Shown: one piece after another, positions 1,091 to 62,035 of the stretch
Layout: the number at the start of each line of letters is the position of its first letter
Numbering within the stretch: position 1 is the first letter of the stretch
Origin: Parcubacteria group bacterium Gr01-1014_31
GTDB lineage: Bacteria > Patescibacteriota > Patescibacteriia > Buchananbacterales > GWA2-38-13
Direction: 5' to 3'
Assembly (NCBI GenBank): GCA_007376135.1
Contig: VMFR01000001.1
Span: forward strand, 142,554 to 206,553
Length of the DNA stretch: 64,000 nt
Position numbers and translations under genes: made by a program
Notes under the pieces: model-generated
Told to the model about the DNA's origin: nothing
Seen by the model: the letters and a program-made list of their open reading frames with translations, nothing else
The model's database searches: none

Positions 1091-2083
1091 ATGGATATAC
1101 CGCGAACAAAGCTGGTTTTTTTTGGCACACCGGCGTTCGCGGCGGGCACTCTTGAGGCGCTGGTCGGCGCTGGCTATCCGGTGGTGGCGGTGGTTACCGC
1201 CCCTGACCGCCCCCGTGGCAGAAGTGGGGCACCAGTCGCCCCGCCGGTGAAGTTGGCGGCCGAGCGTCTCGGCATCCCCGTACTGCAGCCTGGCAAACTG
1301 TCGACGCTGCCGGATCTCGTGCGTCCTCAGGAACCCTTGCTGGGGGTTCTTTTCGCCTACGGCCGGATCCTGCCGCCGCAGGTGCTCCAGATGTTCCCGC
1401 ACGGTATCCTCAATATTCACCCATCGCTTTTGCCTCGCCACCGCGGCCCGGCCCCGGTCGTGGGGGCGATCTTGGATGGGTCCGCGACGACCGGGGTCAC
1501 CATCATGATCCTGGATGACCAGATGGACCACGGGCCCATCCTTGGGCAGCAGCGCGTGACCATTGCACCCGAGGAAACGGCACAACAGCTGACGTCCCGA
1601 TTGGCTGAAGTTGGGACCACGCTGCTGCTCTCGCTGCTTCCCCGGTATGTGTCCGGCGCACTGCACCCGCACCCGCAACCCGCTGCCGGCGCGACCGTGA
1701 CGCGTGAATTGCGCCGGGAAGATGGAGCGATCGTCTGGGAACGAAGCGCCCGCGATTTATACAACCAGTACCGGGCGTGTGATCCGTGGCCCGGTTTTTA
1801 TACGTGGCTGGGCAGCCGCCGGTTGAAACTTTTAGACGTCGGACTTGACGATGCGGTATCGCCGGTCCGAAAGCCGGGGATTCTCCAGGCAGCAGACGGG
1901 AAAGTGGTTATTTCTGCCGCTGCAGGGGCTTTGGTCATCGGCCGTTTGCAACTTGAGGGTGGGGTACCGATCGAGGCGTCCGCATGGCTCCGCGGCCATC
2001 CTGACGCGCGAGGAGCGCGGCTGCGCACGCCCCAACCACCAGCACCCACCCGATCCCCAGCGGATGATTCAGGTACGGCGTGA
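1091..2083 (+). CDS. fmt: methionyl-tRNA formyltransferase
   Basis: Formyltransferase N-domain (LVFFGTPAFA, NIHPSLLPRHRGPAPV) and the Fmt C-terminal domain. Sits directly after def, the canonical def-fmt pair. Confidence 0.9.
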   Translation: MDIPRTKLVFFGTPAFAAGTLEALVGAGYPVVAVVTAPDRPRGRSGAPVAPPVKLAAERLGIPVLQPGKLSTLPDLVRPQEPLLGVLFAYGRILPPQVLQMFPHGILNIHPSLLPRHRGPAPVVGAILDGSATTGVTIMILDDQMDHGPILGQQRVTIAPEETAQQLTSRLAEVGTTLLLSLLPRYVSGALHPHPQPAAGATVTRELRREDGAIVWERSARDLYNQYRACDPWPGFYTWLGSRRLKLLDVGLDDAVSPVRKPGILQAADGKVVISAAAGALVIGRLQLEGGVPIEASAWLRGHPDARGARLRTPQPPAPTRSPADDSGTA

Positions 2084-3443
2084 AAATATTGGCGACGGCG
2101 ACGGCTGCCAGCGCCATCGCAAAGCTTTCTGAGATCCCGGCTATGCCGGGATCTCTTTTGCGGGCCAGGAAAGGTGTGAGTATCAGGGTCGTCAGCCATG
2201 CCGCGTAGATCAGAGCTCCGAGCATCCCCAGTTTAAGCGCGATATCAAGGTACCCCCACTCGAAGGCGAACGTCGTATACCACCCATCGGGCTGTTGGCG
2301 GAGAATGCGGGGGTCCTGCGTGCGGTAGGAAACGGTTCGGCCAAAACCGCTGCCCAGCAGCGGGTGTTGCCCAATGGCTGCGGTCAGGGGTGCCAGTTGG
2401 CTGCGCCGTGTCGACGCCGCTGGTTCCCGCTCTAGTCCGGAGATGCGCTGCAGCAGCACGCCGCTGCCGTAGTTGCCAGAAACCAGTGCAACCAGAGACT
2501 GCTGGGTGAATACGACAAAGGCGAGCAGGAACAAGATCAGCAGGGCGCGCCAACGCAAGGCGTAGTGGAAAGCAGCTACGGCGAGCACCAAGAGGGAACC
2601 GACCGCCGCGGCCACCCAGAAGCTGCGTGATTGACTCACCACGATCGTCGCTGCAGCAGTGTACCAAACCACGCCAGCCGTGATCGTATCGGTAATGCCG
2701 GCAAAAGCACGGCGGCACAGCAAGGCTAAGAAAACCATTGCGCCGGCCAGCGCGTAGAGGTGCGATTGGAAAAAAACTCTGACGAGCGTTCCGCTGACGG
2801 GTGTGATCTCGCCCATGCCGCTGTCGCGGATGAGCTGGTACCAGGGGCCAAGGATTGACGCGGGCAGGTGCCCGAATGCCCAGAGTGTCAGCAATGTCGC
2901 CGTGCCGAGGACCAGCGTTCCGGCCGCCAGCAGCTGCAATACCCGGTGGAAGTCTTTTGGCGTTGCCAGCGCTTTAATGACCGCCGGCAGCAGAAAAAAA
3001 TATAACCATGCGTTGGCGTCCAAAAAAACGTTATTGAACGGGTGATGGATCAGCCCGTTCAGTGCGGCGTACCCGGCGGCGACCGCCAGGAGCGCCGCCA
3101 GCCGATCCCGGATCCCACGAGGGGGTAAAATGCCCTTGCGTTCCCGTGCCCGGCGGGCGAACCATACCGCCATGACGATGATGAAGATGATCATGCGCAG
3201 CGGCAGGCGGTCGCTCCCGAGCGGTACACTGAACCAATACCCTTTGCCCGCGAGCAGCAGATCAGCGAACGCCGCATAGACTCCCCAGCGCAGGTCCCGC
3301 AGCGTCGCGATCAGTACGAGTGCAGCGATGGCCAGTGTGGCTAGTGTATGGAGTCCCGGGCGGAAAAAAGTGGCCGCAAATAATATCAGGGCCCCAAAGG
3401 AGCCCGTTAACGACCAGCCGAAGAATTTATCAACGAGACGCAT
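1935..3443 (-). CDS. O-antigen ligase/polymerase family membrane protein (Wzy_C-like)
   Basis: About 12 TM helices and the Wzy_C-type motifs SQSRSFWVAAAVG and HPLLGSGFG. Start moved to the internal ATG at 3443 (MRLVDKFFGW), which abuts the stop of the upstream GT2 gene. Confidence 0.6.
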   Translation of the reverse strand: MRLVDKFFGWSLTGSFGALILFAATFFRPGLHTLATLAIAALVLIATLRDLRWGVYAAFADLLLAGKGYWFSVPLGSDRLPLRMIIFIIVMAVWFARRARERKGILPPRGIRDRLAALLAVAAGYAALNGLIHHPFNNVFLDANAWLYFFLLPAVIKALATPKDFHRVLQLLAAGTLVLGTATLLTLWAFGHLPASILGPWYQLIRDSGMGEITPVSGTLVRVFFQSHLYALAGAMVFLALLCRRAFAGITDTITAGVVWYTAAATIVVSQSRSFWVAAAVGSLLVLAVAAFHYALRWRALLILFLLAFVVFTQQSLVALVSGNYGSGVLLQRISGLEREPAASTRRSQLAPLTAAIGQHPLLGSGFGRTVSYRTQDPRILRQQPDGWYTTFAFEWGYLDIALKLGMLGALIYAAWLTTLILTPFLARKRDPGIAGISESFAMALAAVAVANIFTPYLNHPLGIGWVLVVGACAAALLARQDGRGAMRTPRSVPHPQVANGR

Positions 3444-3448
3444 ATGTG

Positions 3449-4324
3449 CTAGCGTCGTTGACCCGGGTGCAATATTTGGCTGACCCCTGCTAAAAGCAGG
3501 CTGAGCGGGAAAAGAGCCACGGCACATCCTGCCGCAAGTATTCCGTGGTGTTTCCGCAGATAGCGCACCAGGGAACGGTTGAATATCCATTGCCGTCGCA
3601 CCGATCGGATCTGCCCGAAACTCTGCCCTCCATGGTGGTTGACGCCGGCTTTGGCGCAGTACCATACCGGCAGCCCCTGGTCGTGTGCGCGCTTGCACCA
3701 GTCCACTTCCTCGAACCAAACGTGGAAATGCCCGTCCATTGGTCCAAGTTGCTGGAACGCCTTGCGGGTGATGAGAAAACAGGACCCGGCGACCTGCGGC
3801 GCTGGCTGGGTGGCCGAGTAGTCGAAATCCGCGGCGAAATAACGGGTGAACGTCGGCAGGCGCGGCAGCACGTGGTGGATCTTTGCCAGCAAAAGCAGCA
3901 GCGCCGGAACGGTCGGCAGTCCGCGAACGGATGGTTGTGGTCTGCCATCCAAGTGGTAATGCCGGGCGCCGACGATCGCAGCGCCGTGTTCACCAGCGCA
4001 ATCAACGAGAGTCGAAATGGCGAGCGGTTTCAACACCGTATCCGGGTTCAGGAGCAGCAGGTAGTCGCCGCGCGCTTGCTCGAACGCCAAATTATTGGCC
4101 CTGGCAAAACCCAGATTGTCGCCGGCAGCGATGACCCGCAGGTCAGTGATCTCGGAACGCAGGCGGTTGGCTATTTGCAAACTGCCATCTCCCGACGCAT
4201 TATCGACCACGATGATCTGGTCGCGGCAGTGTCCCAGCGCGCCGTTGATCGAGCGCAAACAGGCCTCCAGCACGCCGGCGCTGTTCCAGCTGACAATGAC
4301 GATGGTGACCAGCGGCCGTTCCAT
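3449..4324 (-). CDS. glycosyltransferase family 2
   Basis: N-terminal GT-A motif VTIVIVSWNSAGVLEACL...VVDNASGDGS. Start placed at MERPLVTIV. Confidence 0.8.
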   Translation of the reverse strand: MERPLVTIVIVSWNSAGVLEACLRSINGALGHCRDQIIVVDNASGDGSLQIANRLRSEITDLRVIAAGDNLGFARANNLAFEQARGDYLLLLNPDTVLKPLAISTLVDCAGEHGAAIVGARHYHLDGRPQPSVRGLPTVPALLLLLAKIHHVLPRLPTFTRYFAADFDYSATQPAPQVAGSCFLITRKAFQQLGPMDGHFHVWFEEVDWCKRAHDQGLPVWYCAKAGVNHHGGQSFGQIRSVRRQWIFNRSLVRYLRKHHGILAAGCAVALFPLSLLLAGVSQILHPGQRR

Positions 4325-4328
4325 AAGA

Positions 4329-5012
4329 CTAGACCGGAAAATCGTGCTTGCAGGCGATGATCTTTCGCGCCGTGCGATAGCGGCGGACTTCCGGAAGCCA
4401 CGGTAGCCACCGGTAGGCAAAACGTGGCAGCCAGACGCTCATGGTGCCGCCGGGACGGACCCGGAAGAGCGCTTCATCGATCCACACACCGATCTTGCCG
4501 CGTCCCGAAAGGGTGAGAAAGAGGTCCCAATCCTGAAAACGCCTCAGCGTTTCATCAAACCCGGGAAAATCGGCTCGTCGCAAGAGCGACGTCGTATGAA
4601 TGTAGGGTTCCTGGCGCAGGCGAGCAGGATCATATGGCCAAAGACGGAACAATTTATGGCCGAAAAAGAACGAAGAATACGCAAAGGCAGCGGATGGTGA
4701 AGCCGCGAGAGTTTGGTAAAAGGTTTCGATTGCGTTGGATTTAAGTTTTATATCAGCGTCGCAAAACAGAATATAGGGCGCACTCCCCTCCCATGCTCCC
4801 CTATTTCTAGCGGTTGACGCTCCTCTATTCTCCTGCCGGACTATTCGTATCGGCAGTCCAACGCCAATCGACGCATCAAGCGGAATCGACGAACCATCGT
4901 CAACGATGATGACTGAAAAATCGCCGAACGTTTGCTGACGCAGGCTTTGCAGGCACTCCGCGAGATCCTTGGCCTGGTCAAAAACCGGGATAATGACATC
5001 GATCTGCGGCAT
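4329..5012 (-). CDS. glycosyltransferase family 2
   Basis: IDVIIPVFDQAKDLAECLQSLRQQT...IIVDDGSS GT-A fold motifs. Confidence 0.8.
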   Translation of the reverse strand: MPQIDVIIPVFDQAKDLAECLQSLRQQTFGDFSVIIVDDGSSIPLDASIGVGLPIRIVRQENRGASTARNRGAWEGSAPYILFCDADIKLKSNAIETFYQTLAASPSAAFAYSSFFFGHKLFRLWPYDPARLRQEPYIHTTSLLRRADFPGFDETLRRFQDWDLFLTLSGRGKIGVWIDEALFRVRPGGTMSVWLPRFAYRWLPWLPEVRRYRTARKIIACKHDFPV

Positions 5013-5014
5013 GG

Positions 5015-6142
5015 TTACGAAAATATCTCACGAAATTGCGCCGTGCGGCTTTCCCACTGGAATTTTCGAGATACCAGGTCCTGGCCCTGGGTGCCGATGC
5101 GGTGGGCGAATGACGGGTCGCTCAGGTAGCGATGCAACGCCCGCGCCAACGCGTCAACATCATTCGGCGGAACGAGAACCCCGCTCACGTTGTGAATTAC
5201 GGCTTCCCGCACCCCTGGAATATCGCTGCCGATGACCGGCTTGCCGAAACTCGCCGCTTCCAGGTACACCATGCCAAAGCCCTCGCGATCGCCGTCCAGG
5301 TCAGCGAGGGGAGTAGAGACGACGAGATCGCACGCTTCATACCAAGCGGAAAGCTCTTGGTCGTCGACCTGCCCGGTAAAAACGACTCGGGGCGTTAGCT
5401 TCCGACGCTTGACTTCGCGTTCCAGCACCCCGCGTTCCGGACCGTCGCCAACAATGGCGTAACGTAGCGCCGGAATGACCGAAAAACGCTGGAGTAGCTC
5501 AAGCATTACCCGGTGATTCTTTCTCGGTACAATGCGCCCGACGGTAATTGCCAACTTGGCGTTGACGAGCCCGTAGCGCTGGCGTAATCGGTCGACGACG
5601 GTCTGGGGAACGCGATGCGGCGCAGACACACCCGGGGTAATGACTGATATCTGTTCCTTCGCCAGCCGGTAACGGGTTCGCGCGAACTCTTGCGTCGCGT
5701 GACTGTTGGCAACGATACGCTGTGCACCCCGGAGGATGCGCCCGGCGAGCCAACGGCGCCTTCCCCGAGGGATTGCAATGTCCATCCCATGAATACTCAC
5801 GACATAGGGTATCCTTTCTCGGCGCTGCAGGAGCCACGCCACCGTACCGTAGGGCAATACCTGTCCGACCCACAGCACCTCGGGTCGGACCGTCGGCATC
5901 AGATTTTTCAGTGTTTGCAGTGTTTTTTTCCAGCGCGGCCATTGCAACGTGCCCGTGGAAAGTAGCGGCTGACGAATGATGCGGTAACGTTGCTCGCGGT
6001 CGAACTCCGGAGCGTTCACCTGGGGTATGGTCAACACGGTCAGGGCATCCGCCGGAAGCCGGCGGCAAATCTCCCGGTAATACGAAGCGACGCCGCCGAC
6101 AGCGGGCGCAAAATCGTCCGAGATGAGGAGCGTACGTTTCAT
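5015..6142 (-). CDS. glycosyltransferase family 4 (GT-B)
   Basis: C-terminal EGFGMVYLEAASFGKPVIGSDIPGVREAV motif. Start at MKRTLLISDDFAP; its ATG overlaps the TGA of the flippase gene as ATGA. Confidence 0.8.
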   Translation of the reverse strand: MKRTLLISDDFAPAVGGVASYYREICRRLPADALTVLTIPQVNAPEFDREQRYRIIRQPLLSTGTLQWPRWKKTLQTLKNLMPTVRPEVLWVGQVLPYGTVAWLLQRRERIPYVVSIHGMDIAIPRGRRRWLAGRILRGAQRIVANSHATQEFARTRYRLAKEQISVITPGVSAPHRVPQTVVDRLRQRYGLVNAKLAITVGRIVPRKNHRVMLELLQRFSVIPALRYAIVGDGPERGVLEREVKRRKLTPRVVFTGQVDDQELSAWYEACDLVVSTPLADLDGDREGFGMVYLEAASFGKPVIGSDIPGVREAVIHNVSGVLVPPNDVDALARALHRYLSDPSFAHRIGTQGQDLVSRKFQWESRTAQFREIFS

Positions 6143-7560
6143 GTGCTGGCAGGTAGAGGACGCGGCAGGCGCCAAACCCGTAACAATGCGCAAATCCCCA
6201 GGTACGCCAGCCCGCCAAGTGTGGCGGTCGCAAAGACGCCAAAACGGACGCGCAACATGCCGATCGTCATAAGCATTCCGGCAGAAGCAACGATGATCTT
6301 GGCGGCGAGCGGCAAAAAGTCCTGCCATCGCACGTTCAGCACCTGACGCACGGCATACCAGTCCAGGCCCAAAAGCACCACGTTGGTCGCCGTGAACACT
6401 GCGGCGGATGCAAAATACCCGAACTGCGGTATCAGCATGATATTCCCGATCACCGCCAGCCCCATCACGATACCTCGATTTAAGGTCGTTTTCGCTTGCC
6501 GGTCGGTGGCGTTCAGCAGGTAACCGGAGGGGAAGGCCAGGAACATGAACGGCAGCGCGGCGGCCATCACGGCGAACGCCGGTGCAACTTCGCGGTACGA
6601 CGGCCATACCCGGTCGAGAATATCGGGCGCGAGTTTTGCCAGTCCCACCGCCATGGGAATACTGAGAATCGCCAGGTAGGCGCAGGCGCGGGTGAAGAGC
6701 TGCAACAAGCGCGGACCGCCGGCCCGGTACGCCTGGGCGAATACCGGGAACAGTACAGCGGCAAAGGTTGCTGGGATAACCTGCTGCAGCGATGTCACCA
6801 CCTTTGCGGGTATGGCGTAGTTCGCCACCGCCTCACTATCAGACAGATAGCCCAGCAGCACCGTGTCAACGACGTTATAGATCTTCACGAACAGTAATGA
6901 CAGCGCGAATGCAGGCACAAGTCGCAGCAGGGTGGCAACCGTGACCATATCCAACGATGGCAGCAGACGGAAGCCAAGAACCCGCCGTAACAAGACCAGC
7001 GCCAGCAAAAAATTCACCAAACTCGCGGCAACCAGCGTAAAGACAAGATGCAGGGTCGAGTGCGACGTTTGCACGACGATCGCGCCTCCGGCCAAAATGA
7101 CCAACTGCACCAGAACGGTCGCGATACTCTCGTAGCGAAAATTCCGCGCAGCTTTGAAGATACCCCAGAAACTCAGCGTGAAGGCGTCCAAAAAAACGAT
7201 ACCCAGCGCTGCGTACACCAAATACCGCACTTCCGGCGGACGTCCGGAAAGGCTGATTATGCCAGCTGCAACGGCGACGGTCAGCACGCTCAGCACGAGC
7301 TTCATGCTGACAATGGCGCGCAGGTACCGATTCCCCTCCTCCGGATGGCGCGCCGCTTCGCGGATCAGCACGGGCGTGATGCCCAGGTCAGTGGCGCTGC
7401 CGAACAGCGTGGCGAACGACAGGGCGAACAAATACGCTCCCAGGTCGGTTTTTGGAAGGTTTGCCGTCAGGTACCAAAAGTAGCCGAACGAGAGGATTTT
7501 CTGAACGACCGACGCGCCGGTCAGGAGTAATGTGTTGCTAGAGACGCTCAATGAGCGCAT
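6139..7560 (-). CDS. polysaccharide flippase (Wzx/MOP superfamily)
   Basis: A 473-aa protein with about 12-14 TM helices and a Wzx-like N-terminus (SNTLLLTGASVVQKILSFGYFWYLTANL). Confidence 0.75.
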   Translation of the reverse strand: MRSLSVSSNTLLLTGASVVQKILSFGYFWYLTANLPKTDLGAYLFALSFATLFGSATDLGITPVLIREAARHPEEGNRYLRAIVSMKLVLSVLTVAVAAGIISLSGRPPEVRYLVYAALGIVFLDAFTLSFWGIFKAARNFRYESIATVLVQLVILAGGAIVVQTSHSTLHLVFTLVAASLVNFLLALVLLRRVLGFRLLPSLDMVTVATLLRLVPAFALSLLFVKIYNVVDTVLLGYLSDSEAVANYAIPAKVVTSLQQVIPATFAAVLFPVFAQAYRAGGPRLLQLFTRACAYLAILSIPMAVGLAKLAPDILDRVWPSYREVAPAFAVMAAALPFMFLAFPSGYLLNATDRQAKTTLNRGIVMGLAVIGNIMLIPQFGYFASAAVFTATNVVLLGLDWYAVRQVLNVRWQDFLPLAAKIIVASAGMLMTIGMLRVRFGVFATATLGGLAYLGICALLRVWRLPRPLPAST

Positions 7561-7563
7561 ACC

Positions 7564-9690
7564 TCAACGCCCAAAACAATCAATTAAATCTTCGGTGCCG
7601 TCGTACCCGTTAATCGGCGGTGGAAGTGGTACTCCTCGCGGGTCGTAAAGAGACCGGATAGCGAACACGACATCGGCGATGTTGACACCACCATCGTCAT
7701 TCGTATCAGCAGCGTCGAGACAGGGAGGTCGAGCATCTGACAAGAAAAGGAATCTCAAGGTGAAGAGATAATCCGAACCGTCGAAATTGGAGTCGCCGTC
7801 GCTATCACCCCGAGTGAAGGGACCATTGCCTGCATAATAGTTGTTCATTATCGCGCGCAACTCCCCGGGGCGTGTTCGTGCAAAATCCTCGATACCCGAT
7901 GTTGAGACTCGCACGAAACCGTTCGCGTCAGACTCTTCGCGTATTTTCGTTTTCAGATTCTCAACCGCGAATATCACCCTTTCCGGTGCGAACGTCGTCG
8001 CAAGATGTTGTTCGAAAGCTGACATGAATCGGGAGCGAAACTCGTTGTTCTTGCTGAGATCAGTCCAAAAATCGAACTGCTCGAGAATCGAAATTGTATT
8101 CCACTCTCGAGCTCGTTCCTTATAGAAGCCCCAGTCGGAATCAAAAAGAACCCAGCGCCACTTACCGTCGGGGCGACCTCTCCAGATAGCAATGTTGTGC
8201 CTAAGCCAATCAATTCGATTGAGATATACATTCGTAATAACGTAATCCAGATAACTGTCCAGATCTATCCTGCTGGTTACATAGTTGTAATATTCCTCTT
8301 GCGACAAATCGTGCGTCGCGGCATAGTTGAGCAAAGTACGGTATTCTGCGTCGTCGCCATGTCGGACCTGCAGTTCATAATTTGACCACTCGAGCAAATC
8401 AATGTCTTCTAGGTTAAGATCATAGTGTGCTGCCAAAAAATGTTCATTCATCTTCTCGCGCAACCAATACGCACTAGTATTTATTGTCCCGTTAACGAGA
8501 TAGGCGCGGACTAGGAGATACGCCTGTGAATCAAAATCCATATTTGACGTCAGTTCGCGCGCGAGAGCATCCCGCAGGGGAAAATATATCGGCGTTTCCG
8601 ACCCGTAACGCAACAGCAACCCCTCGTATGAGGTGAACGGCTGGTCCGGAAAAACCTGATATAAAATTTCACCACTCCCATACCGCCTCCGTGCATATAG
8701 AGCGAGCGACGGGTGGTCGATATTGTGTCCATGCACCTCAACTCCGACATCTTGAGAAATAACATGGTTGCCATTAGGCAAGAAATAGTCGAGATGCGCT
8801 GGCAGCTCTTGGTACGGGGTTTGTGCATAGGACAAGGCAATCACCCCAGTACCGGTTTTTTCACGATCCAGAATGTAGGTAAATGTTTCAACCGGACTCG
8901 CAATCAGATTTGGTGCATATGTTCTCGCACGAACCATGACTGTTCCCCCAAGCTCCATCGGATTTGTGTACCCAGTCGACTGTCTGGTGGGTGTAGTGCC
9001 ATTGGTCGTGATGAAAATCGAGGCACCCTGGGTAGTGCTCATCAGAGTCAGCCTCTGTGGGCTTGGATAGAAACCACTAGGTATTGATGGCCCTGGCTTC
9101 CCTGCAACGCCATCGTACGCGGTCGAAATATTAGCGCCCCCAGGGGTTGGTACATCAAAAAAGCGCAAGGCGACCCAGCCATCAGGTTGACGGCCATAGC
9201 TTATGTCGTCTATTAGCTGCGGCACCTGAACCTCGTCAATCATCTCACGTTGCGGGGAAAATAACGAAATAGATTCGCCGTCGGCGTCAATACGAAAATT
9301 TGCGTGCAAGGCACCCGTACTTAGGCCGGTGCCGTCGGCGAATACGATTGCATACCCACGAGCCGGGATCTCAACCGACGGAAACGGCCATCTTGTTCGG
9401 CCCGAATCATCTGACAGGGAATATCCTCCTAGACCGACCGGAAACTGGTTTTGATTGTAAATTTCAATCCAATCGCTGCGATTATTTTCGTCGTCAAGCA
9501 AGCCATTCGCATTTCCCGAGACGACCTCATTAATACGCAACGGCAAAACCTCTGCGGGTCCGAGTGCAATTCGAACCGATACGTACACGATGCTCCCGGA
9601 GACTATTCCGGCCATTACGAACGTTCTCGCGAGTCGCTGGAAAGTGCGAATCTTGACCGCTGCAAGTTGTCTTTCTCCGTGTACTGCCAT
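7564..9690 (-). CDS. CotH-family kinase-like protein with N-terminal lamin-tail domain, CHB_HEX_C-like beta-sandwich and C-terminal dockerin repeat
   Basis: CotH core (YLVNGTINTSAYWLREKM...NVYLNRIDWLRHNIAIWRG...WRWVLFDSDWGFY). LTD motif (NEVVSGNANGLLDDENNRSDWIEIYN). Dockerin-like Ca-binding repeat DADTNDDGGVNIADVVFAI near the C-terminus. The gene is about 45-50% GC against about 65% for its flanks. Confidence 0.75.
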   Translation of the reverse strand: MAVHGERQLAAVKIRTFQRLARTFVMAGIVSGSIVYVSVRIALGPAEVLPLRINEVVSGNANGLLDDENNRSDWIEIYNQNQFPVGLGGYSLSDDSGRTRWPFPSVEIPARGYAIVFADGTGLSTGALHANFRIDADGESISLFSPQREMIDEVQVPQLIDDISYGRQPDGWVALRFFDVPTPGGANISTAYDGVAGKPGPSIPSGFYPSPQRLTLMSTTQGASIFITTNGTTPTRQSTGYTNPMELGGTVMVRARTYAPNLIASPVETFTYILDREKTGTGVIALSYAQTPYQELPAHLDYFLPNGNHVISQDVGVEVHGHNIDHPSLALYARRRYGSGEILYQVFPDQPFTSYEGLLLRYGSETPIYFPLRDALARELTSNMDFDSQAYLLVRAYLVNGTINTSAYWLREKMNEHFLAAHYDLNLEDIDLLEWSNYELQVRHGDDAEYRTLLNYAATHDLSQEEYYNYVTSRIDLDSYLDYVITNVYLNRIDWLRHNIAIWRGRPDGKWRWVLFDSDWGFYKERAREWNTISILEQFDFWTDLSKNNEFRSRFMSAFEQHLATTFAPERVIFAVENLKTKIREESDANGFVRVSTSGIEDFARTRPGELRAIMNNYYAGNGPFTRGDSDGDSNFDGSDYLFTLRFLFLSDARPPCLDAADTNDDGGVNIADVVFAIRSLYDPRGVPLPPPINGYDGTEDLIDCFGR

Positions 9691-9713
9691 GCCAACATTG
9701 TACCGTATTTCCG

Positions 9714-9745
9714 TAAAAAAAGAACGCCACCCGGGCGTTCTTTTC
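9714..9745 (-). terminator. rho-independent terminator after rpsI
   Basis: AGAACGCC-ACCC-GGGCGTTCT hairpin followed, on the minus strand, by a T7 run. Confidence 0.55.
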
Positions 9746-9763: not shown

Positions 9764-10267
9764 TTACCGCTTGCTCCACTGCGGAGCGCGGCGAGCGCGC
9801 TTGAGACCCGGCTTCTTGCGCTCTTTCATCCGGGAATCACGGGTCAGATAGCCATGGGGTTTCAACGTCGGGCGCAGTCCCGCATCCAGGAGCAACAAGC
9901 AGCGCGAAATGCCGTGGCGGACCGCTTCTGCTTGTCCGTGGTATCCGCCACCGCTGACCTTGACCGAACACCCGTGGTCGGCATCCTTACCGACCAGTTT
10001 CAGGGGCGCCATGATCAATTCCTGCAAGTCCGCCTGCGGGAAGTACTGCAGGAGCGGCTTGCCATTGACGGTGAACTCAATGGAACCTGGTATCAGTCGG
10101 ACCCGCGCTACCGCGGTCTTGCGCCGGCCGACCGCCGCCACATAGGTGTTTTTAGCGCGCGGCTTGGGGCTTACCGCCCTCACCGCGGTTTTGACGCGGG
10201 GGTGTGTTGCCTTGGCCGCTTTGGCGTGCGGCTTGGCTGCTGCTTTCTTTGTGGTCGTAGGGGTCAT
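9764..10267 (-). CDS. rpsI: 30S ribosomal protein S9, with a 50-aa K/A/P-rich N-terminal extension
   Basis: C-terminal GGGYHGQAEAVRHGISRCLL...RDSRMKERKKPGLKRARRAPQWSKR. Confidence 0.9.
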   Translation of the reverse strand: MTPTTTKKAAAKPHAKAAKATHPRVKTAVRAVSPKPRAKNTYVAAVGRRKTAVARVRLIPGSIEFTVNGKPLLQYFPQADLQELIMAPLKLVGKDADHGCSVKVSGGGYHGQAEAVRHGISRCLLLLDAGLRPTLKPHGYLTRDSRMKERKKPGLKRARRAPQWSKR

Positions 10268-22208: not shown

Positions 22209-24047
22209 TCAGCTGAAGCGGATCACGCGGCCAGGCGCCAGCGGCTGCGGTCCGCTGGTCGGCGGGGTGGGAGGTTGCGGACGGACCGGCACAGCCGGGG
22301 ACGGCTCGGTCGAAAGTACGCGCTTGGGCGACTCTGGGGTGGTTAACGGCCGCTCGTTGGCTTCCGGCTTGCGCCGGCGCCCGGAGAACGAAACGGGTTC
22401 GGCGCGCAGCGCTTCCGCCAAGCTGATCTCCTGGATGGGCTGCGGCACCACTTCCTGAGCCTCGCCGCTCTGGAGCGCGTTTTCGCGCTGAAGTTTGAAA
22501 CATTTCTTGCAATACACTGGGCGGATGCCGTCGGGTTTGAAACCGACCTCGACCGGAGTGCCGCATTCATAGCAATCCACCATGAAGCGCGGTTTTACCG
22601 GCACGGCGGGCGCAGCCGCAGGTTCGGTATTTACCCGCGGACGCGCCGTTGTCCGTTCGACGGGCGCCTCCGCCGAAACCGGAGTTCTGACGGCGCGGAT
22701 GACCGGGACAGCCGGGGCAGCCTCGACCCTCTCTCCCTCCTCGTCGTCCGCGACCATGCCGCTCCAACGCGCGATCTTGTCCTCGACGATCTCGCGCGGT
22801 TTACCGTACCGTTCTCGAGTGGCATGGATGATCTTATCGACGTTCCCGGCCTCCTTGGCCCAGTGTTCCAGTGGCGGCAAGGTGGTCGCGGAGAACGGAT
22901 TAGACGCGACCCCGTCGATCATGAGTTTCAGGTAAATGTCGTACTTAGCGAGGTTGACCAAATCCTCCTCATCGAAATAGGGAGCAAATTCCGTGGCCAT
23001 GAACTCCGCATCACCGGCGCCAACGCGGAACGACATGATCGTGCCGACGTTACCGAACACCGCCGCCTGGATCTCTTCCTCGACCTGCTCGACGTACTGG
23101 TGCGCAATGATGAGATTTAACCGGTATTTGCGCGCTTCGGACAAAATGTTCGCAAAACTTTCCGTAGCGAAATTTTGGAATTCGTCGACGTAGAGATAAA
23201 AATCCTTGCGTTCGCGTTCGGGAATGTCGATGCGGCTCATCGCCGCCAGCTGGATCTTGGTGATCATCATCGCCCCCATCAAAGCGGAGGCGTCTTCGCC
23301 CAGGCGGCCCTTGGAAAGGTTCATGATGAGGATCTTCTGGTTATCCATCACCTCGCGGATGTCAAAACTCGTGCGTACCTGCCCGACAATGTTGCGAATG
23401 AGTGCGGTCGACAAGAACTGCCCGACCTTGTTCTGAATGGGGGCAATGGCCTCGGCCTGGAAACGGTCAGGGTATTTAGAATACTCGTCGACCCAGAATG
23501 AGCGCACCACCGGGTCCTTGATCTTGGCGATGACCTTCTTGCGGTAATTCTTGTCTACCAGAATGCGCAGCACGCCCAGCAGCGTGCTGCCGGGGTAATC
23601 AAGGAGCGCCAGGATCGCGTTGCGCAGCACGTACTCGAGCCGCGGCCCCCAGGAGTCGGCCCACAATTTTTTGAACACACCAACCAGGCCAGAGGCGGTA
23701 AGATGTTTATGCTGTTCATTCGCTGACTCCATCACGTTCAGCGAGATGGGAAAATCCATGTCAGCGGGGTTGAAGTAAACGACATCGTTGATGCGGCTGG
23801 TCGGTATGTATTTGATGATCTTCTCCGCAAAATCACCGTGCGGATCCACCACTGCGACACCCTCCCCATTGATGATGTCCTGCACCACCATGTTCTCCAA
23901 TACCGTTGATTTCCCCATGCCGGTCTTTCCGATCAGGTACATATGCCGCCGGCGGTCGTCTTTCTTGATACCAAACTTCAACTTCTGGTTACGGAAGTTG
24001 GTCATCCCGAAGTACACGATACGCTGTTCAGATGGAAGGGGGTTCAT
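22209..24047 (-). CDS. soluble P-loop ATPase of the TraD/VirD4/HerA (FtsK-like) superfamily with a C-terminal zinc ribbon
   Basis: Walker A LIGKTGMGKST, Walker B FYLYVDEFQNF, then NLIIAHQYVEQ; no TM helices. A P/A/V-rich linker precedes a C-terminal CxxC...YCxxC motif (DCYECGTPVEVGFKPDGIRPVYCKKCF). The start overlaps the upstream gene's stop as ATGA. Confidence 0.6.
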   Translation of the reverse strand: MNPLPSEQRIVYFGMTNFRNQKLKFGIKKDDRRRHMYLIGKTGMGKSTVLENMVVQDIINGEGVAVVDPHGDFAEKIIKYIPTSRINDVVYFNPADMDFPISLNVMESANEQHKHLTASGLVGVFKKLWADSWGPRLEYVLRNAILALLDYPGSTLLGVLRILVDKNYRKKVIAKIKDPVVRSFWVDEYSKYPDRFQAEAIAPIQNKVGQFLSTALIRNIVGQVRTSFDIREVMDNQKILIMNLSKGRLGEDASALMGAMMITKIQLAAMSRIDIPERERKDFYLYVDEFQNFATESFANILSEARKYRLNLIIAHQYVEQVEEEIQAAVFGNVGTIMSFRVGAGDAEFMATEFAPYFDEEDLVNLAKYDIYLKLMIDGVASNPFSATTLPPLEHWAKEAGNVDKIIHATRERYGKPREIVEDKIARWSGMVADDEEGERVEAAPAVPVIRAVRTPVSAEAPVERTTARPRVNTEPAAAPAVPVKPRFMVDCYECGTPVEVGFKPDGIRPVYCKKCFKLQRENALQSGEAQEVVPQPIQEISLAEALRAEPVSFSGRRRKPEANERPLTTPESPKRVLSTEPSPAVPVRPQPPTPPTSGPQPLAPGRVIRFS

Positions 24048-25408
24048 ACCGTAGGCCCGGAAGGCGGGCCGGAGGGGGGTTCAAATGGCGCCACCGGTAA
24101 GCCTATCGGCGGTTCCGCACGCTTGGCCTCAGTGCGCTTGACCTGGGGAGTTTTGACGGTTATGGCTGGAAAGTGCCAAATGGTCGCGAGCTCCTCGGTA
24201 TTGAGGATCTCACCGTAGTAGCCTGGGGCATACTGACGAGCGCGTAGGCGATACCACCGCATCAGTTTATTCTTGCGCGCGTTTACCCGTTGGGTCTTAA
24301 ATAACCCATAGGCCTTGGTCATTTTTTTCTTATTAGGTTTGAAGCCGTTCATCTCGAGCGTGTTGAACTGCTTGATGGCCCCAAACAGGGCACTTCCCCG
24401 GGTGGCCTTACTGAAAGCGTATGTGCGGGCAATGTAGATCAGCCTGATTCGAGTATGAAAACCGATTTTACCTATCTTGTGCTCGATCGATTCTACGACG
24501 GAACGCTTTCCTGGTGGAAGATGAAGCATTTGGCTCGCCGGGATCAAGGTTTTTACCTTGCCGTCCGTTTGGCCACCTGTGCTTAACCCGCTAGCGACGG
24601 TACCGATGAGCTCCATGGGGAGGGTCAATAGTTTTTCCCACCACCGTTTGGGTGCTTCGTACCGAGCACCGATCAACTTGGCAACCAACGCCTGACCCGG
24701 ATGGCCCCAGTCGTTATTGGCTGGGGTAATGACAATTTGCAACCACGCCTGCTCATCAGGGTTAAGCTTGGCAAAAATTTCCAAAATGCTGGCCATGGGG
24801 TCCTTGAACTCACCGGAAACGGAGTCTTCGAACTCGCGATAGGTTCTGATCGGGTAGTACTGCTTATTTGTGAGTTTCAGTTCAGCCCCCCACATGTTGT
24901 AGCGGTCATTGGGAAACTTTATCCCACGCCAGCGCATCGCATAATCCTCAACCTCGGTAATCTCAGCTTCCGGGTATTGGGCGTAGACGGCCGCTTCGAC
25001 CAAATCGCGGAATTGTTCTGGCACGTGCATAAGGAATTGCACATACCCGCCGAAACTGACGATTTCCAACCCGATGGATTCTTCCATCTCACCAGCGATC
25101 CATTTATCCTCACGCTTTGGGTCGTTGTGCATGCCAGAAAAATGAGAAAAAATCTGCTCAACCGCCCGTGGTGTTTGCTCGGTGCTGCGAGGCACGTCGA
25201 ATGCCAACACGACATATTTCCTTTTGGCATCGTAGATGCCGCGCCGCCACTCGAGCCACATTGCCGCCCCGATGAACCCGGCCCAGGGCAACAGAAAAAC
25301 CCAGCCCCCATGGCCGAGCACCCACAGTGCCGCCGAGACTGGGTTTTCCGCCGCTGCGGCGGCAAACCCGGCAAAATCGATCGTGAAATTCATAGCCGGT
25401 GGCGGCAC
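24044..25408 (-). CDS. hypothetical membrane-anchored protein (one N-terminal TM, large soluble domain), partner of the ATPase
   Basis: 454 aa with TM helix WVLGHGGWVFLLPWAGFIGAAMWL and no recognisable family. The 4-nt overlap with the ATPase suggests translational coupling. Confidence 0.5.
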   Translation of the reverse strand: MPPPAMNFTIDFAGFAAAAAENPVSAALWVLGHGGWVFLLPWAGFIGAAMWLEWRRGIYDAKRKYVVLAFDVPRSTEQTPRAVEQIFSHFSGMHNDPKREDKWIAGEMEESIGLEIVSFGGYVQFLMHVPEQFRDLVEAAVYAQYPEAEITEVEDYAMRWRGIKFPNDRYNMWGAELKLTNKQYYPIRTYREFEDSVSGEFKDPMASILEIFAKLNPDEQAWLQIVITPANNDWGHPGQALVAKLIGARYEAPKRWWEKLLTLPMELIGTVASGLSTGGQTDGKVKTLIPASQMLHLPPGKRSVVESIEHKIGKIGFHTRIRLIYIARTYAFSKATRGSALFGAIKQFNTLEMNGFKPNKKKMTKAYGLFKTQRVNARKNKLMRWYRLRARQYAPGYYGEILNTEELATIWHFPAITVKTPQVKRTEAKRAEPPIGLPVAPFEPPSGPPSGPTV

Positions 25409-27676: not shown

Positions 27677-29413
27677 CTAGGCGTGAGGCAACGAGCGCGT
27701 GTTCACCCCATACAACCAAAAGAAACGGCGGGGGTTCCGACGCGGCTGGAACAACTGCAGCAGCACGTGAGATACGACCATCGCCGTGAAAATGTTCACA
27801 AAGATACCGAGCGCCAGGGTGATAGCGAAGCCCTTGACGATGCTGGTAGAGAACCACATCAGAATCAGGCTGGTCAGCAACGTGGAGGCGTTCGAGTCGC
27901 GAATCGACGGCCAGGCGCGGGAATACCCGATCGCAATGGCCTTCTCCAAAGCGTTGCCCGCGCGTAATTCTTCCTTGAGGCGCTCGAAAGTCAGGATGTT
28001 GGCATCCACCGCCATGCCCAGGCTCAGCACGAACCCGGCGATACCGGCCAAGGTCATCGTCACCGGGATAAATTTGAACAAGGCCAGAAGCAGCAGCCCG
28101 TATAACACCAGCGACAAGCTCGCCAACACGCCCGGCCAGCGATAGACCAGGACCAGGTAGACAATCACCAGCAATAAACCGAACGCGCCGGCGTTCAGGC
28201 TTTTAGTCACCGCCACCTGCCCAAGCGTCGCCCCGACCGCCTGCTGGGAAATAATGGTGATCGGCACCGGCAGCGCGCCGGCGTTCAGGCGCTCTTTCAG
28301 CTGTTTGGCCTCGGCGATCGTAAAATTACCGGAAATTACGGCACTCCCGGACGAAATGACGTCGCGTACGACCGGGCTGCTGATCTCCACTCCATCCAAG
28401 AAAATACCGACGGGGCGCCCAAGGTTCTTGCGGGTGATCTCGGCAAACAGTTTGCCGCCTTCGCTATTGAATTGCAACGACACCTGCGGTTCTCCCGTCT
28501 GCGGGTCAAAGGTGACCGTCGAACGCTGCAAGTGAGCTCCGCCCAGTTCAGTATTCACCCACGGCGTGCCCGAGGATGATGGCGCGGTCTGATACAAAAT
28601 GTGACTGCAGTGGGCTTCCAGCTGGTCCCCGCTGTCGCGGCGCTCGAGCACCTTGATGATGTGGTAGCCGAACTGCGACCGTACCAGCGTTGGATACACG
28701 GCGTTGACCTTTCCGGTCCGAAAACAAACATCCTCGAATTCCGGGACGAATACTCCCAGCTGCACCCAGCCCAGATCGCCGCCCTGCTCGGCGGAACCGT
28801 CGTCCGACTGTTCACGCGCCAGCGCGGCGAAATCCGCACCGGGCTTGATCGCCGCCGTCAAACCGGCGGTCGCGCGAGATTTCACCGTTTCATCCTCCGC
28901 CGCCGGGGTAGCCGTTGCGCTGCCCACCTCCTTAAATTCCAACCGAGGCGTTTCGTCGATCAGATCGATGGCGGCCGCTACATCCGTCACGCCCGGCAAT
29001 TCCACGATGACGCGCCACTCCTGGCCGCTGCGGGCAGTCTGCACGACCGCTTCGGAAACGCCAAAAATATTCACCCGCCGCTCGATCACGTCGCGCACAC
29101 CCTCCAGGGCACCGCTCGCCTCGCCGGCGGGCACCTTGGAAATGTCCGCGGTGTAGATCAGCTGCACGCCGCCCTGCAAGTCCAAGCCCAGGCGGTAGGG
29201 TTTCACCAGGCTTGCCGGGAGCGCGCGTCCACCCGGCAGTTGCGGAAAATCCAACAACGCCGCCAGGATCGCTAAAATAAAAATGCCCAGGCACCCCAGG
29301 CGAATTTTGGTTCGGCTGCTCATGCGCTTAACAGTGCTTCGTGAGTTAAAAATCAGCGCCGCATGACGCTCTCCATTGGTCGCTATGCTAGCAAGATGTG
29401 CGCAGTTTGACAA
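27677..29413 (-). CDS. secD: protein translocase subunit SecD with an inserted PpiC/parvulin-type PPIase domain
   Basis: SecD N-terminal TM, P1 head (LGLDLQGGVQLIY) and a C-terminal six-TM bundle. A parvulin signature (GGDLGWVQLGVFVPEFEDVCFRTGKVNAVYPTLVRSQFGYHIIKV) lies in the periplasmic domain at about aa 175-260. Confidence 0.8.
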   Translation of the reverse strand: MSNCAHLASIATNGERHAALIFNSRSTVKRMSSRTKIRLGCLGIFILAILAALLDFPQLPGGRALPASLVKPYRLGLDLQGGVQLIYTADISKVPAGEASGALEGVRDVIERRVNIFGVSEAVVQTARSGQEWRVIVELPGVTDVAAAIDLIDETPRLEFKEVGSATATPAAEDETVKSRATAGLTAAIKPGADFAALAREQSDDGSAEQGGDLGWVQLGVFVPEFEDVCFRTGKVNAVYPTLVRSQFGYHIIKVLERRDSGDQLEAHCSHILYQTAPSSSGTPWVNTELGGAHLQRSTVTFDPQTGEPQVSLQFNSEGGKLFAEITRKNLGRPVGIFLDGVEISSPVVRDVISSGSAVISGNFTIAEAKQLKERLNAGALPVPITIISQQAVGATLGQVAVTKSLNAGAFGLLLVIVYLVLVYRWPGVLASLSLVLYGLLLLALFKFIPVTMTLAGIAGFVLSLGMAVDANILTFERLKEELRAGNALEKAIAIGYSRAWPSIRDSNASTLLTSLILMWFSTSIVKGFAITLALGIFVNIFTAMVVSHVLLQLFQPRRNPRRFFWLYGVNTRSLPHA

Positions 29414-39266: not shown

Positions 39267-39346
39267 AAATTTCAGCCTTGGGACAACTGCGTCGATTGCA
39301 AATTAGGCGAAAATATGCTATGCTCAACGCAATTACGTACCACCGA

Positions 39347-39422
39347 GGGTCCATAGCTCAGTTGGTAGAGCAGCTCCCTTTTAAGGAGACGGTCGCAGGT
39401 TCGATCCCTGCTGGACCCACCA
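39347..39422 (+). tRNA. tRNA-Lys (anticodon UUU)
   Basis: GGGTCCA acceptor, anticodon stem GCTCC/GGAGA with loop CTTTTAA, T-arm GCAGG-TTCGATC-CCTGC, discriminator A, CCA encoded. Confidence 0.8.
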
Positions 39423-39430
39423 CCAATTCT

Positions 39431-40237
39431 ATGTTCACGGCCATTTGGGACACCATCGTTTTCAAACCGCTGTTCAACTTCCTCATCTTCCTGTACCAGC
39501 GGTACACCGGCTACAACCTGGGAATTGCGGTGGTCTACATGACGCTGCTGTTGCGGATCGTTTTGCTGCCATTATCGGTCATGGCCGAACAGGGCAAAGA
39601 ATTCTACCGCCGCATTCACACCAAGATCTCGGAGGCTCAGCGCGATTTCGCCGATGACCCGGTCCGCCAGAAGCAGGCCATCCGCGAGCTCCTGAAGCGG
39701 CATAAGATCCGCCCTTGGACACGGGTGGTGGTGCTGTTGTTCCACATCCTTATTTTGATCGCCTTGTACCAGGTGTTCGTTGGTGGTCTGACCCGCCAAA
39801 AATTCGGTGCCCTCTACCCTTCGGTCGCTGCCCCGGACTTCATCAACACGAACCTGTTCTGCTTCGACTCGGTGCACAAGGTCGGCTGCCTGGATATCGC
39901 ACAGTCGAATTTGTGGTTCGCCGCGGTCGTGGCGATCGTCCTCTTCATCGAGATCACACTCTCCCAGCGCGGCTTGCGCAGCAAACTTTCCCAACCGGAG
40001 ATCGTCTACCGCTTCCTTTTTCCGGCGTTCACCTTCGTCGCGCTGGCGTTATTGCCCTCGGTGAAGTCGGTCTTCATTTTGACCTCGCTGCTGTTTTCTA
40101 TTATTATTAGTCTCGGGGGCACGGTATTTTTTTCCGCCGGACGCCGGCGCGAAGCGCAGGCGGAGATTAAAAAAACCGCGCCGCAAACCGCCGATGACCC
40201 GCTAGCGAACAACTACTATGGCCGACAGCCTCGATAA
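39431..40237 (+). CDS. yidC: membrane protein insertase YidC (short form)
   Basis: 268 aa, five TM helices, conserved YidC/Oxa1 core (LLPLSVMAEQGKEF...RELLKRHKIRPW). Start placed at ATG 39431; the ORF-track start lies inside tRNA-Lys. Confidence 0.8.
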   Translation: MFTAIWDTIVFKPLFNFLIFLYQRYTGYNLGIAVVYMTLLLRIVLLPLSVMAEQGKEFYRRIHTKISEAQRDFADDPVRQKQAIRELLKRHKIRPWTRVVVLLFHILILIALYQVFVGGLTRQKFGALYPSVAAPDFINTNLFCFDSVHKVGCLDIAQSNLWFAAVVAIVLFIEITLSQRGLRSKLSQPEIVYRFLFPAFTFVALALLPSVKSVFILTSLLFSIIISLGGTVFFSAGRRREAQAEIKKTAPQTADDPLANNYYGRQPR

Positions 40238-61584: not shown

Positions 61585-61595
61585 TTTTCCGCTGT

Positions 61596-62030
61596 GGATA
61601 GCCAGGCGGTCGCTCCGATACACAATCGGAGAGGAAAGTCCGAACACCCTGGTTGTCAATTGACAATCTGTCGCGGTAGTGGGTAACGCCCACCCGGGCC
61701 GCAGCAATGCGGCTTGAGGACCAGTTCCACAGAGACCATACTAACCCCGAAGGGGTTATCCCGAGCGACGCCCGCAAGGGCGGAGTCGAGGGATCTCCCA
61801 TTCAGGGCAAAACGTGAAAAGTGTGGCGAGGTCATTGGCTACAAGTGGGAATTCCCGGTAGCTGACGGCTACGCTACTCCGCGCCCAGCGATGGGACGCG
61901 CGTGGTAAACTCTACCTGGTGCAATGCCAAGTTTGGTCGGCAGCATGAGGCCGCCAGCAATGACGGTCCCAGAGAGATGATCGCCACCCGCCTTCGGCGG
62001 GGACAGAATTCGGCTTACCGGCTATCTGCA
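61596..62030 (+). ncRNA. rnpB: RNase P RNA (bacterial type A)
   Basis: P4 hallmark GAGGAAAGTCCG, the 3' ACAGAATTCGGCTTA element, P1 pairing GGATAGCCAGG/CCGGCTATC, and GGTAACGCC (P6/P7 region). Confidence 0.8.
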
Positions 62031-62035
62031 GCAAT

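Follow-up and report, generated by a model that had tools for sequence, protein, structure and literature searches.

How did a gene for a CotH kinase-like protein come to stand between a ribosomal-protein operon and a surface-glycan operon in a very small groundwater member of the Parcubacteria, and what might its product do there? The question is raised by a 64,000-nucleotide (nt) stretch of Parcubacteria group bacterium Gr01-1014_31 (contig VMFR01000001.1, positions 142,554 to 206,553; hereafter, the window), in which an intact 708-codon open reading frame (ORF; 7564-9690, minus strand), encoding a product of 708 amino acids (aa), lies between rpsI and the flippase gene wzx. Comparison with related genomes indicates, with high confidence, that this gene is a lineage-specific single-gene insertion. 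Regarding its product, we consider it reasonably probable that the locus as a whole is explained by a foreign insertion whose product is tethered to the cell surface, serves in binding and has little if any kinase activity.

The corresponding site is empty in five related contigs (L002, L003, L004, L005 and L006/L007), in each of which only 81-97 nt separate rpsI from wzx and no gene is inserted. The relatives share the conserved order alaS, infA, rpsM, rpsK, rpsD, rpoA, rplQ, rplM, rpsI, wzx, two types of glycosyltransferase genes (GT4, GT2, GT2) and wzy, the opposite strand carrying fmt, def and priA, and this arrangement is kept throughout from alaS to priA. Their distances to the window are graded: identity of RplQ is 97%, 83%, 66% and 66% over the relatives, and that of RpoA is 81% in L004, 69% in L005 and 64% in L006; in L002, RpsI, RplQ and Wzx are 96%, 97% and 82% identical to their window counterparts. 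Nucleotide alignment with L002 (blastn) delimits the insertion, as window positions 11749-9763 match L002 3-1979 at 85.9%, this left block ending precisely at the rpsI stop codon (9763), and window positions 7521-1009 match L002 2099-8610 at 77%, with the alignment resuming about 40 nt inside wzx; between both blocks, 2,241 nt of the window stand opposite 119 nt of L002. The insert comprises one ORF only, and an independent Logan assembly, 100% identical to the window over 12.4 kb, displays the same joins.

Base composition sets the gene apart as well. The first-pass annotation of this DNA had described a gene of 45-50% GC within surroundings of about 65%; the direction of this difference was confirmed, and its size proved smaller, with 50.3% in the gene, 59.5% in the flanks on each side and 60.0% in the window. 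The gene is nevertheless the lowest-GC 2.1-kb stretch in the window, where the remaining GC dips are either mild or due to the RNase P RNA gene. With the 32 long genes of the window as reference, its GC content is 0.503 vs 0.608 (z = -3.5), and its GC content at third codon positions (GC3) is 0.518 vs 0.739 +/- 0.048 (z = -4.6), the strongest deviation in the window; furthermore, its synonymous-codon Kullback-Leibler divergence of 0.225 is about twofold that of genes of similar length (0.05-0.13). The deviant profile of composition and codon usage, together with the empty site in five related contigs, bears out the earlier claim of a precise insertion of compositionally foreign DNA.

A lineage-specific insertion is preferred because one gain suffices, against several clean losses, and because of the GC3 outlier. 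The opposite possibility, that the gene is ancestral and was lost in the relatives, or that assembly or binning has produced a chimeric junction, finds some room in the intergenic spacers, which evolve fast and do not allow the borders to be mapped to the base, and in the nature of the data, which come from metagenome-assembled genomes or contigs only. However, ancestral presence would require several independent clean deletions (in L002/L003, L004, L005 and L006), each leaving a terminator-plus-TATACT spacer, and the deviant GC3 speaks against it; a chimera, in turn, is at odds with flanks that are syntenic on both sides and with the same join in two assemblies. We therefore regard this possibility, in either form, as very improbable.

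The features of the gene, its product and its surroundings are collected in Table 1. The gene had been placed exactly between the rpsI terminator and wzx, with a 3-nt gap, and this location was confirmed by the terminator hairpin on one side and the TGA-GGT-ATG junction on the other. The arms of the hairpin are 100% complementary according to a repeat finder, and the structure was confirmed by RNA folding; a promoter and terminator scan called neither this terminator nor the TACAAT hexamer. Each relative carries at the same place its own, different hairpin and T-run, after which a TATACT hexamer is found 6-17 nt upstream of the wzx ATG. Since TACAAT stands where TATACT precedes wzx in the relatives, the inserted gene appears to occupy the first-cistron position of the Wzx/Wzy operon, leaving wzx without a spacer of its own. 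The proximity of TACAAT to the ATG suggests a possible leaderless or short-leader start, and the 3-nt spacer predicts co-transcription with wzx and, probably, coupled translation. The gene order of the recipient operon is also found in L002 and L004-L007.

Table 1. Coordinates of the inserted gene, of the elements encoded in it and of the adjoining features, in window positions.
Feature	Position	Strand	Basis and remarks
Inserted gene	7564..9690	-	GenBank TSC76971.1, annotated as 'hypothetical protein'
N-terminal hydrophobic helix, aa 24-43	9562..9621	-	Sequence; preceded by Lys/Arg-rich segment; signal anchor or signal peptide
Lamin-tail domain (LTD), aa 51-156	9223..9540	-	Pfam PF00932, 50.4 bits vs 34.3 gathering score
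CHB_HEX_C_1/Fn3_assoc Ig-like domain, aa 204-272	8875..9081	-	Pfam, E 3e-13 and 6e-10
CotH kinase-like fold, ~aa 280-620	7831..8853	-	Pfam match aa 372-588 (7927-8577)
Degenerate N-lobe motif	8683..8715	-	H326-P327-S328...R334-R335-R336 vs family (S-R-x-x-P)-Q-K-S-x-x-I-x-A-R
C-lobe catalytic elements	8128..8214	-	D494 and N499 ('IDWLRHN'), D517-x-D519 ('FDSDWG'), all retained
Dockerin-like C-terminal module, aa 626-708	7567..7815	-	Two 12-residue putative Ca-binding loops; Cys C657 and C705
Loop 1, DSDGDSNFDGSD, aa 629-640	7771-7806	-	EF-hand-type; followed by predicted helix aa 641-650
Loop 2, DTNDDGGVNIAD, aa 662-673	7672-7707	-	EF-hand-type; followed by predicted helix aa 671-680
rpsI (ribosomal protein S9, 167 aa)	9764..10267	-	Pfam Ribosomal_S9, E 3e-43; last gene of ribosomal protein/rpoA operon; left border of insertion
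Intrinsic terminator after rpsI	9711..9744	-	11-bp stem, arms 9718-9728 and 9734-9744, 5-nt loop, then T-run
-10-like hexamer TACAAT	9697..9702	-	Read from sequence; 6 nt upstream of ATG at 9690
3-nt spacer GGT	7561..7563	-	Reads TGA-GGT-ATG, between stop of CotH gene and wzx ATG
Recipient operon	1935..7560	-	Pfam; gene calls on identical Logan contig L001
wzx flippase	6139-7560	-	Pfam, Wzx-type flippase
GT4	5015-6142	-	Pfam
GT2	4329-5012	-	Pfam
GT2	3449-4324	-	Pfam
Wzy-like polymerase/ligase	1935-3443	-	Pfam

Other observations concern the recipient genes. The first 30 nt of wzx (window 7521-7560 vs L002 2060-2098) are 53% identical to the closest relative, rising to 80-100% just after, and codon 4 of wzx encodes Tyr in all four relatives and Leu in the window; the first codons of wzx may have been remodelled where the insertion joins it on the right. 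Moreover, the first GT2 gene (4329-5012) has the lowest GC3 (0.586) among the native-looking genes, and the GT4 protein is 50-78% identical to its counterparts in the relatives, so that the glycan locus itself appears compositionally and evolutionarily labile. As for the start of the inserted gene, an alternative at Met26 (9615), as called in the Logan assembly, would yield a 683-aa protein; Met1 (9690) was preferred because it supplies a basic region ahead of the hydrophobic helix. Shine-Dalgarno motifs are nearly lacking in the source genome and give no help in this choice. Across the window at large, start codons were almost never preceded by a Shine-Dalgarno-like motif in the upstream regions of 19 genes, and several promoter-like -10 elements lie 6-7 nt from the ATG in the source lineage, both of which suggest frequent leaderless or Shine-Dalgarno-independent initiation.

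The product combines several extracellular-type domains. Pfam calls were judged against curated gathering scores, which the LTD, the CHB_HEX_C-like and the CotH domains all exceed, in agreement with the first-pass annotation; NCBIfam gave no match for the protein. The LTD is an Ig-like beta-sandwich related in structure to the Ig-folds of lamin A/C and B1 (Foldseek, target template modelling (TM) score 0.5-0.67), with a predicted local distance difference test score (pLDDT) above 90, and a profile of relatives finds the Ig-like module again in 8AYR and 6Q63. The CotH match (PF08757, 88.6 bits vs a threshold of 23.8, E 7e-25) covers only positions 49-289 of the 322 in the profile, which is matched nearly in full (1/3-320/322, 136-177 bits) by the related proteins P0188, P0004, P0002 and P0178. 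An AlphaFold2 model based on 44 sequences reached a pLDDT of 83 and a predicted TM score of 0.76, with 430 residues at pLDDT >=90; confidence is high for the LTD, Ig-like and CotH regions (block-mean pLDDT mostly >85 in the latter); a helix is modelled at aa 3-30, and confidence drops in the linker (aa 35-46) and in the tail (aa 623-708). The top Foldseek match of this model was Bacillus cereus CotH (5JD9/5JDA; E 5e-13, probability 1.00, target TM 0.72). The basic N-terminal region followed by the hydrophobic helix agrees with the earlier proposal of an extracytoplasmic protein, and P0188 has the same basic-then-hydrophobic layout; we predict with moderate confidence that the protein is held at the membrane by a signal anchor, with its folded domains outside.

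Whether the CotH domain could act as a kinase depends on residues which have fared differently in the two lobes. In a phmmer alignment to 5JD9, D494, N499 and D517 correspond to B. cereus D224, N229 and D247, and over 122 aligned domains they are conserved in 113, 122 and 122 cases, respectively. D228 and D251 of Bacillus subtilis CotH are essential, and their mutation inactivates the protein (PMC7821199); D494 and D517 presumably correspond to them, since both pairs share a 23-residue spacing. The N-lobe, conversely, is degenerate: P327 occupies the position of the near-invariant Lys of 'Q-K-S' (Lys in 108 and Arg in 11 of the 122 domains, Pro only in the window protein), the Arg of 'SR' falls in a 3-residue deletion, and just upstream (aa 288-294) about 28 residues corresponding to the 'TDPxNLF...GIY...NFWxDW' segment are deleted, as is a segment of about 10 residues with 'H-x-x-R-W'; additionally, T366 lies in a column with D/E in 118/122 domains. 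Concerning the catalytic Asp and Lys expected of a CotH kinase, then, the former are kept (D494, D517) and the N-lobe Lys is not. Because the C-lobe elements are retained but the N-lobe Lys, the Arg and about 30 residues are lost, it seems about an even chance that the domain is catalytically impaired, that is, a pseudokinase or a weak kinase.

A different view, which takes up the suggestion of the first-pass annotation that the protein could phosphorylate surface or host substrates, is that of an active secreted CotH kinase derived from cellulosome-type Firmicutes and functionally integrated with glycan export. The CotH fold, the retained catalytic Asp and Asn and metal-binding Asp, the export signal together with the dockerin-like tail, and the tight coupling of the gene to wzx are all in its favor, as are the existence of cellulosomal LTD-Fn3-CotH-dockerin proteins (PMC6083626) and the suggestion that cellulosomal CotH proteins are kinases or structural components (PMC12484212). 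Nonetheless, we consider this view unlikely, given the N-lobe losses and the partial Pfam match just described, and further evidence from the tail, the family and its genomic neighbors.

The C-terminal tail resembles a dockerin without reaching the Pfam definition of one. On the isolated tail, Dockerin_1 (PF00404) scored 17.0 bits vs a gathering score of 22.9 (E 0.007), so that the dockerin repeat of the first-pass annotation falls short as a Pfam call; its two canonical Ca-binding loops, however, are present. In both, positions 1, 3, 5, 9 and 12 carry acidic or amide residues, and translating the window in all six frames revealed no other EF-hand-type loops. In P0188, the homologous tail reaches 26.7 bits and so exceeds the gathering score, and the tail Cys residues of the window protein are shared with P0188 and P0178. 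The pLDDT of aa 623-708 is below 50 in the full model, and 45.5 when the tail was modelled in isolation from a two-sequence alignment. The sub-threshold score and the Cys residues count against a cellulosomal kinase, and so does the result of a Pfam scan of 27 large ORFs from the window, which gave no Cohesin match and corroborates the earlier remark that no cohesin partner is visible there.

The ancestry of the protein was sought in an exhaustive scan of 1.84 billion representatives, which yielded 38,134 matches with E <= 1e-3, of which 4,777 had E <= 1e-30. Apart from the protein itself, the best of these is only 35-37% identical; the LTD-CotH family numbers more than 38,000 clusters at 50% identity. 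The top 80 loci in species-representative genomes, at 28-34% identity, belong mostly to Ignavibacteria, Bacteroidota, Calditrichota, KSB1, Marinimicrobia, Planctomycetota and Lentisphaeria, with few Clostridia and no Patescibacteria. The proposal of cellulosomal Firmicutes as donor is thus not supported, as the nearest relatives (28-37% identity) come mostly from the Fibrobacterota-Chlorobiota-Bacteroidota (FCB) group and Planctomycetota; Clostridia are a minority and no closer, which also argues against the active kinase. The donor would have been a lower-GC organism, possibly another member of the Parcubacteria. P0188 (748 aa) is the only protein found that shares the architecture of the window protein; it is encoded on a Parcubacteria contig of 38% GC (L008) whose EF-P and S6 cluster at >=90% identity with Parcubacteria bacterium GW2011_GWA2_38_13, and would fit a lower-GC Parcubacteria source followed by amelioration, which we take as a lead only. 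As the donor lineage itself, P0188 was rejected, being an orphan with 35-39% identity to everything and a match in architecture only. Literature searches yielded nothing relevant on CotH in bacteria of the candidate phyla radiation (CPR), or in polysaccharide or glycan-assembly loci, and no experimental study of LTD-CotH protein function.

The genomic neighbors of the family bear on the role of the operon. Around the 80 relatives elsewhere, we found type IX secretion system (T9SS) cargo (19/110), further CotH/LTD proteins, glycoside hydrolases of families GH43, GH3 and GH2, carbohydrate esterases and CBM6, as well as, in three loci, a pair of VTC (polyphosphate polymerase-like) and DUF4956 genes; Wzx and glycosyltransferase families are absent from the 25 commonest neighbor families of these 80 loci. 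The usual setting of the family therefore appears to be extracellular glycan degradation, and the position in the operon would reflect where the DNA landed, without in itself pointing to a part in exporting glycans. A functional link to glycan export is accordingly not supported, and the lack of association with Wzx/glycosyltransferase loci is a further argument against an active kinase integrated with that pathway.

Another possibility is that the gene is a neutral passenger heading for decay, i.e., a recent gain, still intact, with no function in its host. Its confinement to one lineage, the degenerate conserved residues of the N-lobe with two further deletions relative to the family, and the lack of cohesin, VTC or DUF4956 partner genes nearby are compatible with this. 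Against it, the 708-codon ORF is open, which by our own arithmetic has a chance of about 1e-15, and the 430 residues at pLDDT >=90 indicate a confident fold; CPR genomes are streamlined; the GC3 of 0.52, intermediate between a source at 31-37% GC3 (e.g., L008) and the host at 0.74, suggests long residence; and the gene lies upstream of wzx, where a disruption would be polar on the latter. A neutral passenger is thus quite improbable in our judgment, more so than the active kinase.

The explanation that we favor is, instead, that a Parcubacteria (CPR) lineage acquired one foreign gene between the rpsI terminator and the wzx start codon, and that this gene would now be the first cistron of a Wzx/Wzy surface-glycan operon, its expression being tied to the operon through the 3-nt wzx junction. 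The product would be exported and held at the membrane by its N-terminal helix, displaying the LTD, Ig-like and CotH-fold domains and a putative Ca2+-binding dockerin-like tail on the cell surface, where the CotH domain would act as a binding or adhesion module rather than as an efficient protein kinase.

Several points weigh against this explanation. Signatures of mobility are missing at the locus, with no integrase, no flanking direct repeats beyond chance in a repeat search, and no tRNA target within 20 kb. No donor lineage could be named from the 1.84 billion representatives, the top 80 loci or a neighbor-joining tree of 122 CotH domains, where the window protein falls on a long branch with unstable neighbors, and which was therefore not used; the search for a donor clade thus ended with a best identity of 37% and an uninformative tree. 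As these representatives include no homologue above 37% identity, the transfer is possibly old or the gene very fast-evolving, and even P0188 is no closer in sequence to the window protein than the FCB-group matches. The export and surface location of the protein, its binding of Ca and the co-transcription of its gene are predicted throughout. Concerning catalysis, the weak point is that the lost Lys is presumed to be the ATP-binding Lys: a profile of the N-lobe alone gave no match to PDB sequences, so that this residue was not placed on 5JD9, and some active kinases relocate their ATP-binding Lys. Direct or inverted repeats flanking the gene were limited, apart from the terminator hairpin, to short matches at chance level, and a tblastn search of phage and plasmid collections gave no match above 28% over more than one third of the query.

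A more elaborate version of the favored explanation is conceivable, although we hold it to be speculative and improbable as a whole. The protein would be a surface pseudokinase-adhesin of an episymbiotic CPR bacterium, with a CotH fold devoid of nucleotide binding that, along with the LTD, the Ig-like domain and a Ca2+-dependent tail, would bind a glycan or protein of the host cell or matrix; through operon capture, adhesin and surface glycan would be displayed together, and P0188 would mark a small CPR-specific subfamily of reduced CotH-dockerin proteins exchanged among Parcubacteria.

Features of the window beyond the inserted gene were recorded as well. Next to it, S9 bears an N-terminal Lys/Ala-rich extension of about 46 residues in the window, L002-L005 and L007 (164-175 aa in all; the call in L006 has 130 aa), and the adjoining L13 is called with 90 aa by NCBI vs 124 aa in other sources. 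A SecD homologue (27677-29413, minus strand) carries a PpiC-type Rotamase_3 domain (aa 172-258) between SecD_1st and SecDF_P1_head, apparently an unusual fusion. A VirD4/TrwB-like coupling protein of type IV secretion, equipped with a treble-clef zinc finger, is encoded within 22209-25408 (minus strand), and the 454-aa ORF after its gene (24044-25408) has no Pfam match and a GC3 of 0.64, the second-lowest among the long genes. A tRNA-Lys gene (39347-39422) lies inside an ORF (39140-40237, plus strand) bearing a YidC/60KD_IMP domain (aa 128-323), so that the real YidC start must lie downstream of the tRNA. The class A RNase P RNA (61594-62033, plus strand) has 440 nt vs 367 nt in the model, hence insertions, and accounts for the GC dip at 61-63 kb. 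Lastly, the stretch 51064-55813 (minus strand) encodes a surface protein of 657 aa with DUF11 repeats and a DUF4012 protein of 937 aa; it adjoins two genes for GT4-type glycosyltransferases (55750-58040), with which it forms a second envelope/glycan cluster in the window.

Gene transfer of this kind is ordinary and well documented, and the LTD-Ig-CotH family, of which the window protein represents a reduced form, is already known. The locus is nonetheless a clean, base-level case of a streamlined CPR genome gaining one gene horizontally, with the empty site preserved in five relatives and the newcomer now standing at the 5' end of a surface-glycan operon. The case places a very large family in the Patescibacteria; the survey of neighbors, rich in T9SS cargo and glycan-degrading enzymes, gives a hint to the function of this uncharacterised family; and the reduced N-lobe is a natural variant for asking if extracellular CotH domains need kinase chemistry. 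TSC76971.1 can be renamed from 'hypothetical protein', and its position alone is no reason to assign it to the glycan-export pathway.

Among known systems, the cellulosome of Clostridium thermocellum includes two proteins, Cthe_0044 (CseP) and Cthe_0239 (LTD-LTD-Fn3-CotH), that combine CotH with dockerin (PMC6083626), in accordance with the association made in the first-pass annotation; such combinations also occur in anaerobic fungi, and cellulosomal CotH may be a kinase or a structural component (PMC12484212). These proteins dock to cohesins of scaffoldins, of which the scanned ORFs of the window hold none, and the window tail differs from their dockerins as a sub-threshold, Cys-containing variant. 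Bacillus CotH (5JD9/5JDA) shares the atypical kinase fold at about 15% sequence identity, and its catalytic Asp (B. subtilis D228), metal-binding Asp (D251) and catalytic-loop Asn have equivalents in the window protein. In B. subtilis, CotH is a spore-coat kinase that phosphorylates CotB and CotG. Bacillus CotH acts in the mother cell as a single-domain protein and lacks an export signal, an LTD and a dockerin. The N-lobe of the window protein could not be aligned to its N-lobe, and the conserved basic residue of the K-S motif is missing from it.

Much closer are the secreted LTD-(CHB_HEX_C/Fn3_assoc)-CotH proteins of Bacteroidota, Ignavibacteria, KSB1, Planctomycetota and Clostridia, named in databases 'CotH kinase family protein' or 'lamin tail domain-containing protein'. 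They display the same order of LTD, Ig-like and CotH domains after an N-terminal export signal, are 28-37% identical to the window protein over aa 50-590, and have in common with it the C-lobe motifs D-W-x-x-x-N, K-W-R-W-x-L-x-D-x-D and R-E-K-x-N-E. Compared with them, the window protein is shorter (708 aa vs 950-1,200), has one LTD and no T9SS sorting domain, ends in a dockerin-like tail, and has lost about 28 N-lobe residues and about 10 at 'H-x-x-R-W', with Lys replaced by Pro; furthermore, it is found in a CPR host and in a glycan-assembly operon, not adjoining glycan-degrading enzymes. P0188 differs from it in retaining S-x-R...Q-K-S, in matching the CotH profile from 3 to 320 (137 bits) and in passing the Dockerin_1 threshold; its gene agrees in composition with its surroundings (36.6% GC on a contig of 38% GC), and has as neighbors, in place of wzx, genes for a PMT_2 glycosyltransferase and for a DNA methylase. 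Although the identity between both proteins is only 35%, they align end to end (aa 37-706), and in P0188, too, a transmembrane anchor precedes a single LTD and the Ig-like domain, the CotH domain shows the N-lobe deletion seen in the window protein, and a short linker leads to a dockerin-like tail, which shares with the window tail the R-G-D and P-x-C-x-D-A-A-D motifs and the C-terminal Cys.

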